DNA from: Pristiophorus japonicus
Taxonomy: Eukaryota
Length of the DNA stretch: 64,000 nucleotides
Direction: 5' to 3'
Assembly (NCBI RefSeq): GCF_044704955.1
Contig: NC_091989.1
Coordinates: 104,718,001-104,782,000 of the forward strand
The notes beneath the pieces are model-generated. The model saw only the letters and a program-made list of their open reading frames with translations. It did no database searches and was not told where the DNA came from. Below are positions 1 to 5,011 of this stretch, piece by piece; the stretch's first letter is position 1; each line of letters begins with the position of its first letter. Made by a program: the position numbers and the translations under genes.

Positions 1-922
1 AATGTTAATCTGTCAATTCTCTATATCTCAAGATATATTGAACGTTACGGTAAAAGAAGAATGCTGAGGAAAATGACTGTATAAAAGTCGTCACATTTTT
101 TGCATTTACAACGGAGCTGTTTAACCTCGGCCAGTGACTACTTTTAAACTACATCAGCATCCCATCGAATAATGGAAATGACAAATTGGAAACGATAGCT
201 GGAAGCTAACCAGCATATACTAAGATCATAAATGACAGGACATAGTTTGTATGACAAAATAAATCCCAGGTTATCCCCAATGTGGCCCTGATTCAAATGA
301 CCATTAAACTCCAATTTCGCAAAATTGGACCTTGAATTTTCTTACCGAATTACAGTTGGCACCTCTGCTCGTGAGAGCTGTTCCACAGGGGCGCGTCAAG
401 GTTGGAAACGCTAATGTGAGGTGGCTCTGTTCGGACCCGTTGAATTGTCCGTTAATAGTTTGGAAGGAGCATACATTTGAAATGAAGTTGAATGGTTATA
501 TGTTTAACATTTAAATACCGCGTTTTCAGGTTTAGAATAATATTTCCTATTGCTTTTCAGGGATCGGAGGGTTTGTTATTTAGATTTAGGACTAATCCAA
601 TGACTGTTTCACTTAGACCAGAAGAGTGCAAGCTGAAGCCGGCGGGCCAGATGCAGTGGACGAACCCTTACAATCCTTTCCCCTTTGAGACACTCGCCCT
701 CTTGAAGGCCACTCCTGAATTGACGGCCGCAGCACCAGCACACCTTAAAATAGATGTTGGAACTTAATTTAGGGAGGAATTGCTCTCCTGTTTAATCCTG
801 GAACGTGGGTGTTTGTTATTGTGATTCCTTATATGTTGCTCCAATATACAAAGTGATACAGTTAGACAGCCAATGAGTTGCAATTTGTTATAATAATTTT
901 GCAACAATAGTTAAGGACCACT

Positions 923-1036
923 GGGCGTAATTTTAACTTTGTGCGATCAATGGAAATAAAATTTGAGAGAGTTGTAAAGTGAGCTGTCGATTCGCTATCA
1001 TCCCTTTAACTAATGCACAAAGTCAAAATTACCCCC
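923..1036. mobile_element. Small MITE, PIF/Harbinger-like
   Basis: TIRs GGGCGTAATTTTAACTTTGTGC / GCACAAAGTCAAAATTACCCCC; 3-bp TSD ACT on both sides. Confidence 0.7.
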
Positions 1037-2436
1037 ACTTTCTTCACAGTCCGACTCCTGAGAGAAACGTCCCTCTGAATGCACAGCGATTTTTGGCGTT
1101 TGTTTAAAATAGACGATATTTGATCCGCCGCCTGTTCTACATCTATTCAGCATTTTTTTAAATTAAATGAAGGCAGAAGAGCTAAACATACACTTAATAC
1201 AGCCTGTGCTAATGAATAGGTCGCGGTAATATTTTTCATGTTTGATTTACAGCATAGATCGTGCAATGACTGCAGTCGGCGGTATGCCATAATCCGGTAG
1301 CAACCCGCCATCCCTGAATAATTCTTCTGATCCCTGTGTGGAATTACACAGAGTTTCGGGGAATTTATTCGTTGGTTATTTGGCGCAAACTGGTACATAG
1401 TGTCAACCATTTCACTCGAGATGCCTAACCAGAGGAAATCTCCACTCGTGTCTACACCGACGGGAAGAGAGAAATCCTACCCCGGGGCCATTTAGAATGA
1501 ATCATTGCTTCACCCTCCCGTGGGTTAGGGTATCTGTTAATTGGCTTCAGTTTCGCTGGCAGTTTCTCAATGTATCCTGGACAGCAGCCTTGAAATTCCC
1601 AGCTTACTTTCAATTCTGTTTTCATGGTTGTGAGATTCCCTTCCATGGGCAGAGCCACCTTACACTGCAAGACATTGTAACTGAATCCAACTGGGCGGGT
1701 ATTTTTAAAGCCACTAATCTGCAGAAAACATTGCAGTTTTCCTTACAGAAATCTTGCCCAACAAAGCTTCAATGTTGCCCGGTACGAGTTGAAATATTTT
1801 CGATCCGCGGCCGACCAGGCAAAGACTTGGCCGAGGTTTCCGCTTCTGTGCTGCCCAGCCCGCGATTTTCCGTTCGGAAAACCTCGACGAACTGATTTTA
1901 AGGGGTAAGAATGAAATGTTTAGATTGTATTTTAATTACCACATTTCATTCTAATGTAAAACATGCAAGACTGGAGGGCAAGTTAGAGATTTCACTGGAC
2001 AGGAGGTGATGGATAAGAAACGCTCGTTTCATTTCAAATCAACATCCTGTAACTGCCAGAGACGATTGTGGAATGTACTTTAAAAATAACGTTTTATCTT
2101 CTGCAGTAAGTGATGTTGAAATAGCTGTTAAGGTAGGAGCCTGCGGTAACAACAGACGAATGCCGAGGTAAGAGATGAGTTGTGAAATATTCAGCTCTCT
2201 GCTTTCTTCTCTCAACCTTCACTCGAAGATGAACAAAAGCCCCGGCCTCCCGTAGCCACAGTGACTGATGCTGGGTACAGCTGCACCAAAGTTCTTTCAG
2301 CTCCCCAGTCACCGCCACAACGGTCTGCCGTGCACTGCTTAGTCTGTAAGGGTCCCATAATGAAGAGTCGTAAATGAGCAATTAATGGCAATTCGCTTTA
2401 TCCCACACCGCCGTTCTCTCACTCCATCCCTCTGAC

Positions 2437-2683
2437 GTATCTCACTGGCCCGGTAATCTATCTCACTGGCCCGGTATTCTAGCTCACTGGCCCAGTGCCC
2501 CATCTCACTGGCTTGCTAATCTATCTCACTGGCGCAGTGTCCCATTTCGCTGGCCCGGTGTCCTATCTCGCTGGCCCGGTAATCTATCTCACTGGCGCAG
2601 TGTCCCATTTCGCTGGGCCCGGTGTCCTATCTTGCTGGCCCGGTGTCCTACCTCACTGCTCCCGTATCCTATCTCACTGGCCC
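2437..2683. repeat. Minisatellite, ~21-bp unit (TATCTCACTGGCCCGGT core), ~11-12 copies, in the intron 3' of the V exon
   Basis: Visible tandem copies of tatctcactggcccggtaatc / catttcgctggcccggtgtcc. Confidence 0.9.
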
Positions 2684-2725
2684 GATTTCCAATATTTGTA
2701 GAAACCGCTGAGAATGATCACTCAC

Positions 2726-3031
2726 CCCTTACATTAAGCTTCACTCCGGTACTATTTCCGACATATTGACCTTCCACTCTGCAATAATAGACTCCAGCAT
2801 CTCCGAAACGCACGTCCAGAAGGCGCAACGTGGCGCTCGCTTTACTCTCAACCTTGAAGTTTCTCCTGGGATCTTGTCTTAAGAATTCCCGCGTACCTTC
2901 TTTCCACCAATGGACTGCGATTTTATTTTTATCTCTGAACAGGGGGAACGAGCAGTGAAAAGTCGCGGTCTGTCCTGTGATTATATCGTTTTTATCAAGC
3001 CACTGATTCACTGTGGCGTCGCCGGCGGCGG
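2726..3031 (-). CDS. Ig-superfamily receptor, exon 2: single-exon germline-joined VJ-type V domain (NKp30/NCR3-like family)
   Basis: Acceptor tgtttgcag|CC at 3031, donor AGG G|gtgagt at 2726; 306 nt, phase 1-1 as typical of Ig domains. Translation ...DATVNQ...TATFHCSF...VHWWK...ATLRLLDVRFGDAGVYYCRVEGQYVGNSTGVKLNVR has B-strand Cys, C-strand Trp, DxGxYYC and a J-like G strand. The family assignment rests on motif resemblance only. Confidence 0.88.
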
Positions 3032-3102
3032 CTGCAAACACAAACATTTATTTACGGAAGGGAGGACACGTGGAAATTAATACTTCGAGAGGAAAACGGG
3101 GC

Positions 3103-3197
3103 AACAACGTCCCCTCTAGTCGCTAAGTGCTGGCGAGCTGCTTTCAGAGTTTCGCTAGCCCCTGCCCTTAAACATATAGCGACCAGAGGAACTGTTA
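3103..3197. mobile_element. Small MITE (hAT-like) in the leader-V intron
   Basis: Imperfect inverted ends aacgtcccctctagtcgcta / tagcgaccagaggaactgtt. Confidence 0.45.
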
Positions 3198-3337
3198 GCC
3201 TCCAAAGAACAAAATGAAACTACTTCAATCATAAATAGAGATATCATTCAATGCAATATACATAAACTGTGATTTTTTTTCTTCAGTTTAACTTATAGCT
3301 TGTTCTATGTAAGGCTTGTTAAAATGAAAACATTTAC

Positions 3338-3407
3338 CTGTGCAAATAACAGCTAGGATGAGTATAGAGTAAAGTTGAGCTCTTCCAAACATACTGAGCA
3401 CAGGCAT
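3338..3407 (-). CDS. Ig-superfamily receptor, exon 1: signal peptide (leader) exon
   Basis: ATG at 3407 gives MPVLSMFGRAQLYSILILAVICT(G) with a hydrophobic core. Donor ACAG|gtaaat at 3338 is phase 1, in frame with the V exon. An in-frame second ATG (MFG) is an alternative start. Confidence 0.8.
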
Positions 3408-4102: not shown

Positions 4103-4920
4103 ATTATCATAGGCAGTCCCTCGGAGTCGAGATGACATGCTTCCACATTAAAAATGAGTTTTTAGATGACTTAACTCCAATGCGGGAGCTACAGTCTCTG
4201 TCGCAGGTTGGACAGATGGTGGTTGAAAGTAGGTTGACTGAAGTGCTGGTTTTTTAAAGTGCTTGGGTTGTCCTGCGCTCCTTCCGCCGTATGCGTTGGG
4301 TCTCCGCTTGCTCCCAGCGAAGAGACTCGAAGTGTTCGACACCCTCACGGATTATTCTCTTCCATTTTGAGCGACCTTGCGCCAGGGATTCCCAGGTGTC
4401 GGTGGGGATGTTGAACTTCTTCAAGGAGGCCTTGAGGGTGTCCTTGAAGTGTTTCCTCTGCCCACCTGGGGCTTGTTTGCCCTGTCAGAGCTCTGAGTAG
4501 AGCGCTTGCTTTGGGAGTCTCGTATCGGGCATACGGACGATGTGGCCTGTCCATCGTAACTGGTTGAGCGTTGTCAATGCTTCGATGCTGAGGATGTTGG
4601 CCTGTGCGACAACACTGACATTGGTGCACCTATCCTGCCAATGGCTATGCAGGATCTTCCTGAGGCAGCGTTGATGGTACTTCTCCAGTGCTTTGATGTG
4701 CCTGCTGTATATAGTCCATTTCTCAGAAGCATATATGAGGGCAGATATCACTACTGCTCTGTAGATCATGAGCTTTGTGCTGGTTTTAAGGTTCTGGTCT
4801 TCAAACACTCTATTCCTTTGGTGATCAAAGGCTGCACTGGCACACTGAAGGCGGTGCTGGACCTTGTCAATGATGTTTGCCCTTGTTGACAGTAGGCTCC
4901 TGATGTATGGAAAATGGTTT
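4103..4920 (-). mobile_element. RTE-clade LINE, 3' fragment
   Basis: ORF 4485..4808 (KLMIYRAVV..LIYASE.W..LRWTGHIVRMPDTRLPKQALYSEL) matches the RTE ORF2 C-terminus; 3' tail reads catcataggcagtccctcg-like on the + strand. Confidence 0.85.
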
Positions 4921-5011
4921 ATTACCTGTTGTCACATTAACTGTTTTAGTGCTGTCCTTGTAGCCGGTGGGCTTGTTACATCGAATGTACAGCACAGAAA
5001 CAGGTCATTAA

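Follow-up and report, generated by a model that had tools for sequence, protein, structure and literature searches.

A single exon of Pristiophorus japonicus that encodes a whole immunoglobulin V domain already joined to a J-like strand raises the questions of whether it belongs to a working gene, whether its short, IgNAR-like V domain is kin to the V domain of IgNAR (VNAR), and what a receptor of this build might do. The exon lies in a window of 64,000 nucleotides (G000:C13:104718001-104782000), which is the whole stretch of DNA that was analysed. The gene is on the minus strand of this window and its remainder lies beyond the window start.

A spliced, non-rearranging gene

A reading made from the window's sequence only had proposed a leader exon and a single phase-1 exon holding the whole V domain and a J-like G strand. 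We confirmed both exons with canonical splice sites (Table 1). Spliced transcripts and downstream exons, for which it had suggested a search, were found as well: C1, TM and tail exons were located in the 200 kb past the window start, 8-26 kb outside the window. The protein of 330 aa that results from splicing the five exons, all with GT-AG introns, is the same as P0012, a P. japonicus model in UniRef with the automatic name SIRP-alpha-like. In a contig of run X1 position 3338 is joined directly to 3031 and the 306 nt between them, which have CT..AC ends, are left out; this is the leader-V splice. A contig of run X2 passes from position 2726, where the V exon stops, to the opening codons of C1, which is the V-C1 splice. 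Both runs are from one study and their kind is unrecorded; the spliced joints in their contigs imply transcripts. The leader-V and V-C1 joints were taken from these contigs, and the C1-TM and TM-tail joints from the database model. The species has three database models of the gene, none of them TM-skipped. Database isoform X3 (P0013) skips the V exon and joins the leader to C1.

Table 1 Features of the gene and its surroundings (plain numbers are window positions)
Feature	Position	Length	Strand	Remark
Exon 1, leader MPVLSMFGRAQLYSILILAVICT	3407-3338	70 nt	-	ATG at 3407; GT donor, phase 1
Exon 2, germline-joined VJ domain	3031-2726	306 nt	-	between TTTGCAG and GTGAGT; both ends phase 1
V-C1 intron, 5' part	1..2725	11 kb (whole intron)	-	remaining gene past window start
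C1 exon	G000:C13:104709434-104709730		-	Pfam C1-set 51.5 bits
TM exon	G000:C13:104706997-104707113		-	uncharged; end Cys-rich
Tail exon	G000:C13:104692451-104692653		-	CIRC motif; without ITIM/ITAM
Alternative last exon of isoform X2	near 104695.7 kb, C13		-
Minisatellite within V-C1 intron	2438..2684	21 bp, 11.7 copies	no strand

The absence of an RSS after the YYC, also claimed earlier, held: the RSS scan of the V exon found neither heptamer nor nonamer there, and in controls from the same genome it found them after the YYC in 3/3 segments (one IgL V and two VNAR). An RSS look-alike at 3015 (CACAGTG, 13-bp spacer, 2 mismatches) is coding and sits at the 5' side of the V exon, the wrong end, and was taken as chance. 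ITIM or ITAM exons, which the sequence-only reading had suggested looking for, are not part of the gene, which lacks an ITIM, an ITAM and a charged TM. The minisatellite of the V-C1 intron is probably unrelated to function. Upstream of the leader, LINE-like fragments were read from the sequence at window positions 4254-4931.

Stops in 6 of the 36 V matches in the genome show that the surrounding cluster holds dead copies, and the V exon itself has lost 2 residues and has a Gly-to-Ser substitution of its own, as might be expected of an orphan or pseudogene exon. Against such a reading stand the open five-exon frame, the canonical splice sites, the spliced contigs and orthologues with 55-69% V identity in sharks and rays; we regard it as refuted and leave it next to no credence. 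The gene is intact, spliced and non-rearranging, with a leader-VJ-C1-TM-tail build.

The compact V domain and its likenesses

The VJ exon encodes ...FHC...VHWW...DAGVYYCRVEGQYVGNSTGVKLNVR. Cys50 and Cys107 are 57 residues apart and Trp65 is 42 from Cys107, in agreement with the earlier statement that the canonical cysteines stand close together and that the stretch after the C-strand Trp is short. The spacing is 57 because of the 2-residue deletion relative to the orthologues, which have 59. Across the family it was 54-60 in 55/55 V domains measured, and compactness was therefore rejected as a mark of the gene itself. Comparison spacings were 61 in VNAR, 61-64 in sauropsid SIRPs, 63-70 in NCR3-like domains, 66 in IgL and 54-55 in I-set domains. 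The G strand reads GNSTGVKLNV, and Ser117 does occupy the first Gly of G-x-G-T-x-L-x-V as had been noticed; but Gly is found in 8/8 aligned orthologues, so that Ser117 is private to the species among those aligned and was rejected as a defining feature. The substitution leaves the N116 glycosylation sequon intact.

Structure prediction had been named as the check on loss of the C'/C'' region. An AlphaFold model of the V domain (pLDDT 95.6, 63-row alignment) has strand C at 35-40, a 12-residue link with one bridge residue and strand D at 53-59, and no C' or C''; loss of both strands is thus predicted. A fold search placed VNAR first (Z 13.4, rmsd 2.5, 96 aligned, 21% identity), with near ties for NCAM2 (13.3), titin (13.0) and CD79b (12.7), and with NKp30 at 12.2 and 29% identity. 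Foldseek gave VNAR ranks 1-3, the E-values of VNAR, NCAM, nanobodies and NKp30 lying within a factor of two. VNAR, a compact V domain without C'/C'' like the predicted one, is the best structural match by a small margin, and its top matches are tied with I-set, CD79b and B7 domains at 21-27% identity. The best matches in another fold search were Fab chains. A PDB profile search ranked UrIg2 second and SIRP-alpha fourth; with a V-only profile, the best 60 matches contained no VNAR, NKp30 or SIRP and were filled by multi-domain I-set proteins, which makes them uninformative for membership. The ESM Atlas returned generic V/I-set clusters only, and phmmer with the V domain gave no VNAR among the 20 matches listed.

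We compared these domains in trees. The V tree had 66 rows and 104 columns, single-domain trees in general about 100 columns; family rows were chosen manually (27 for V, 25 for C1), the I-set outgroup did not form a single clade, and 17 redundant isoforms or cluster members were removed before the V+C1 tree was built. VNAR, IgL, UrIg-like, B7-like and NCR3-like V exons came from the same genome and SIRPs from birds and reptiles. L105 is a confirmed VNAR and the best natural match of L102 is NKp30; the other locus names (VNAR, UrIg-like, B7-like, IgH) are read from sequence. The gene and its relatives form a monophyletic family in both the V tree (99/95) and the C1 tree (99/98). AU tests rejected the grouping of family V with VNAR (p=0.021) and kept those with SIRP (0.067), UrIg (0.068), turtle tandem-V (0.118), NCR3-like (0.153), turtle plus NCR3-like (0.166) and I-set domains (0.194). 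Among these seven tests on 104 columns VNAR alone was rejected, and even that rejection is modest.

Relationship to the IgNAR V domain by descent, as precursor or as germline-fixed derivative, would account for VNAR structures standing first in both fold searches and for the lack of C'/C'' in both. It has against it the ties with NCAM, titin and CD79b at low identity, the phmmer matches, the AU result, a spacing of 61/47 in VNAR vs 57/42 in the gene, and the position of the IgNAR genes found in the genome on other contigs. VNAR also has an RSS, D and J segments and several constant domains, whereas the gene has no RSS, D or J segments and a single C1 followed by a TM. We consider descent very improbable and largely refuted. 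The IgNAR-like V domain of the sequence-only reading therefore stands as a shape and falls as a pedigree; the likeness is probably convergence, the short V having arisen independently of VNAR. A separate VNAR-like exon, L116:2730-3086 (minus strand, G000:C23 near 64.675 Mb), is germline-joined through a J-like YGAGTNLTV, has a C exon of IgNAR type 1.5 kb downstream and groups with two rearranging VNARs in the V tree.

The gene had also been likened to NKp30- and CD28-type receptors. The germline-joined, non-rearranging VJ domain was upheld, and the V-only build was not, the gene being V-C1-TM. NCR3/NKp30 has a single-exon VJ domain as the gene does and a TM Arg as do the activating members of the family; in NKp30, however, an Arg-bearing TM follows the V domain directly without C1, while the gene has C1 and an uncharged TM. 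The G-N-G-T-G-x-x-L-x-V G strand is common to the family, L101/L102 and turtle tandem-V proteins. In the best V tree NCR3 is not the sister of the family, and the AU test keeps a joint clade (p=0.15). NCR3-like genes of this genome lie on C19 with MHC class I and have a Cys-Cys spacing of 63-70, whereas the family is on C13 and has C1 and inhibitory members. Joined V exons of NCR3-like type, 8 or more in number, form a cluster at L088-L102 (G000:C19:15.9-17.8 Mb), and the MHC class I cluster on the same chromosome is of the split-exon kind. Nine intronless MHC class I alpha1-alpha2 matches (scores nearly equal at about 181 bits, long open frames, both strands) were seen at G000:C3:316.6-319.3 Mb and one stop-broken intronless copy at C13:26.08 Mb; we read these as retrocopies or element-borne.

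CD28, CTLA4 and PD-1 have a single V domain, a PPP or EIP motif in the FG loop and a tail Tyr motif (PMC11599192). These features are absent in the gene, which has RVEGQY as its FG loop, a C1 domain and no Tyr motif. At L122:2712-3305 and 3-317 (minus strand, G000:C11:80.65 Mb), outside the family studied, a C1 exon comes after a joined VJ exon whose FG loop holds EIPPP (CD28H-like), and the two may be a PRARP-like pair; a second C1 match lies at C11:81.07 Mb on the opposite strand. PRARP and tetrapod VJ-C1 genes, named in PMC10751288, have a non-rearranging VJ followed by C1, as the gene has.

UrIg and UrIg2 likewise have a non-rearranging VJ followed by C1. UrIg has 3 and nurse shark UrIg2 has 9 C1 domains, with MHC or Ig/TCR linkage (PMC12227049). 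UrIg differs in its long V (69-75) and three or more C1 domains from the gene, which has one C1 and a compact V and belongs to a multigene paired family. UrIg-like V exons on C19 and C4 formed a separate clade (100/97). One of these loci, L114:2529-2972 (plus strand, G000:C4:117.29 Mb), is a UrIg-like joined V exon with C1 exons downstream and is not on the MHC chromosome.

I-set adhesion molecules were a further comparison. The V domain scored 37.4 bits as V-set and 37.1 bits as I-set in Pfam, both above the cut-off, and its spacing is I-set-like. Placement with I-set adhesion molecules, which the sequence-only reading had named as an outcome that would count against it, was kept at AU p=0.19 on 104 columns. 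The J motif, the C1 domain and the paired tails of the family argue against this assignment.

A C13 family with a paired-receptor layout

To the 36 V matches in the genome a paralogue query added 3, so that the V exons number 39 or more. Every one of them is on C13, where they form groups at 85-86, 98, 101-102.5, 104-105 and 111 Mb. Paralogues are 27-43% identical to the gene in V. For 30 of the 36 matches a downstream same-strand C1 exon of their own lies within 20 kb, so that these are separate V-C1 genes, and a translocon, with V segments using one common C, was rejected. In a survey of six blocks behind neighbouring V exons and of 264 kb around the gene, three neighbours (104.10, 104.36 and 104.88 Mb) had open exons with ITIM/ITSM-like tail motifs and one (C13:104.478 Mb) had an Arg where its TM begins and what looks like a short tail.

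The family extends beyond this genome. A profile search found 74 members within the best 150 representatives (50% identity), and 14 members looked up by name were from sharks, rays and Callorhinchus. Of 53 representatives with a TM, 23 had long ITIM/ITSM tails, 14 had an Arg near the TM start and a short tail, a class assigned by a crude rule and including some incomplete models, 3 were of the CxxC type of the gene studied and 13 were outside any class. This is the layout of paired receptors, with on/off signalling predicted from the motifs. The best scores on the family V profile outside the family, 49-52 bits, belonged to turtle tandem-V domains; multi-V joined-VJ receptors were seen in Chiloscyllium (P0105) and turtles (P0133, P0150, P0109).

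Among known systems SIRP has the same arrangement, a joined VJ with C1-set domains and clustered ITIM/ITSM inhibitory, activating and motif-less members. The two differ in number of C1 domains (two in SIRP, one in the family), in the V domain, which is fairly short in SIRP (61-64 in 96 sauropsid SIRPs) and shorter in the family, and in the activating residue, which is a mid-TM Lys in SIRP-beta and an Arg at the TM start in the family. The family could therefore be the SIRPs of cartilaginous fish, with the chromosome changed and one C1 lost, and the gene a SIRP-gamma by descent that would bind CD47. The V-C1 build and ITIM/ITSM tails do resemble bird and reptile SIRPs, the best genome matches of pigeon SIRP-alpha in a first, stricter search are C1 exons of the family (45.9 bits vs 36.9 for the best Ig C), SIRP-alpha ranked high in the PDB profile search, and AU tests keep family and SIRP together in V (p=0.067) and in C1 (p=0.26-0.34). 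However, SIRP V domains (101 proteins) reach 11-33 bits on the family V profile, below the turtle domains, and their group in the V tree, at 96/88, is with Ig/UrIg/VNAR and not with the family; the family also stands apart from the SIRP clade in the best V and C1 trees.

The gene neighbourhood does not favour SIRP descent either. An NSFL1C-like exon, NSFL1C being what we take to be the neighbour of SIRP in tetrapods, lies on C12 without a family match there, one marker in all. The gene is 1.5 Mb away from KATNB1 and shares its chromosome with GPI, which points to a block of the 16q21 type of the human map; a CIAPIN1 marker is on an unplaced contig. The SIRP family has moreover been placed at Tetrapoda (PMC13262535). 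SIRP descent is, in our judgement, distinctly unlikely. From its sequences, the family would work in a SIRP-like way with a G strand common to NCR3-type V domains, and we assign it to neither.

The gene and its orthologues are already known as predicted, automatically named proteins. For one orthologue group, RefSeq and UniRef give 'SIRP-alpha-like', 'NCR3LG1-like', 'CD276 homolog', 'tapasin-like' and 'Ig lambda-like'.

The motif-less member and its possible role

Orthologues of the gene are present in hexanchiform, horn, carpet, ground and mackerel sharks and in rays, with 62-69% V identity in sharks and 55-60% in rays; a chimaera orthologue (43%) probably exists. The orthologue V clade, with ray and chimaera, had support of 100/96 (6 rows of the V tree). 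In the V+C1 tree the shark part had 99/96 and the clade with rays and chimaera 91/34, and the chimaera C1 grouped with the sister gene P0023 in the C1 tree; the orthology of the chimaera gene is weaker for these reasons, and its model is without a TM. The orthologues that have a TM share an uncharged one with adjoining cysteines, and the tails are basic, with C[VIS]RC in 12/12 checked and no conserved Tyr. The tail exon is single-copy, with 1 match in the genome among 73 candidates. A search with TM and tail found 6 proteins among 41 candidates, all from sharks; being word-based, it lacks the power to establish that bony vertebrates have none. The TM exon is cleanly absent in 4/4 short/long model pairs from four sharks, these isoforms being database models. 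New, then, is a family member with a single-copy tail, a neutral TM, no conserved tyrosine and an invariant CxxC; sharks, rays and probably chimaera have orthologues of it, and for four of the sharks there are models that skip the TM.

A sister gene, L002 (G000:C13:111.42 Mb), is 64% identical in V to its counterpart, Heptranchias P0023, which has a similar PWWIY TM exon and a tail with a tyrosine. Given that tail, the comparison suggests that the signal-less member arose through an exchange of tails.

The BC, DE and FG segments had a conservation of 0.79-0.84 in 9 orthologues vs 0.37-0.42 in 44 paralogues. This pattern fits a fixed ligand at the tip of V, and is confounded by divergence time. 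R108, which is invariant, was considered as a sialic-acid site in comparison with the Arg motif of Siglecs and PILR; this is a weak lead, and neither Siglec nor PILR was among the matches listed from two fold searches. Co-receptors have CxH/CxC and LCK itself has CxxC (PMC10768021). An Lck-binding CxC role was not adopted, the TM-adjoining CKC being missing in the aligned carpet sharks and ray.

With about even confidence, we propose that the gene is the conserved motif-less member of a paired-receptor family of cartilaginous fish, which would bind a conserved ligand at the V tip and serve in adhesion or as a co-receptor or decoy, and would not signal alone. Among SIRPs, SIRP-gamma is such a non-signalling, adhesion-type member. 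The tip loops (BC P-L-F-R, DE K-A-S-A and F-strand R108) would form the ligand site. The juxtamembrane cysteines and the tail CxxC may be palmitoylated or bind zinc and so fix a membrane location or a partner, and TM-skipped transcripts could provide a soluble decoy.

The same conserved tip, the single-copy tail, the lack of a signalling motif and a place inside a diversifying cluster could also be those of a conserved self ligand, recognised by its variable neighbours in the cluster, inhibitory and activating alike, CD200/CD200R being a model of such a linked receptor-ligand pair. Several orthologues are automatically named after B7-family ligands; but automatic names test nothing, the B7-like V domains fall outside the family in the V tree, and a single ligand is unlikely to suit so many divergent paralogues. 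We hold this reading rather unlikely.

An invariant partner chain, pairing in a Fab-like way with the cluster's variable V-C1 chains so that two-chain germline receptors result, is a further alternative. Its V-C1-TM build is that of a TCR or IgL chain, Fab chains were the best matches in one fold search, and the aromatic residues W66, F73 and Y106, invariant across orthologues, lie on what would be the Ig V pairing face. The C1 tree unites the family at 94/88 with the C domains of Ig/UrIg and with two B7-like rows, and the lineage of the gene branches early in it. Such pairing is hard to reconcile with the J-motif Phe/Trp position, which is the Asn of an N-x-T sequon whose glycan would sit inside an Fv-type interface, with the lack of a hinge cysteine and with paralogues that have complete signalling motifs themselves; we judge it quite improbable.

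Beyond the proposed motif-less member, a wider and more tentative reading, possible though not one we would expect to hold, is that cartilaginous fish have a germline receptor system, as yet without a name, whose invariant hub is this gene. It would have been kept as one copy since the shark/chimaera split as the self ligand or common partner of some 40 variable VJ-C1 receptors, in membrane and secreted forms as antibody chains are, within a VJ-C1 lineage that has an Ig-type C1 and lost C'/C'' independently of IgNAR.

A literature search returned no title on a chondrichthyan V-C1 paired family; key papers lay outside the search, so that absence from print is not established. PMC12227049, from its abstract to its discussion, treats UrIg, UrIg2 and NCR3 and does not describe the family. 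Intact VJ-C1 genes are sought as models for the gene split by the RAG transposon (PMC12227049). Relevance of the family to antigen-receptor origins is possible, given the grouping of its C1 with Ig/UrIg C domains.

The receptors behind the activation thresholds of innate cells in sharks are, to our knowledge, little known, and the family is a large candidate paired-receptor system in cartilaginous fish. Its V domain would also be a second case of C'/C'' loss among sharks, apparently an independent one. Since the member described here is conserved across sharks and rays, it provides a practical handle for ligand finding and for cross-species reagents.
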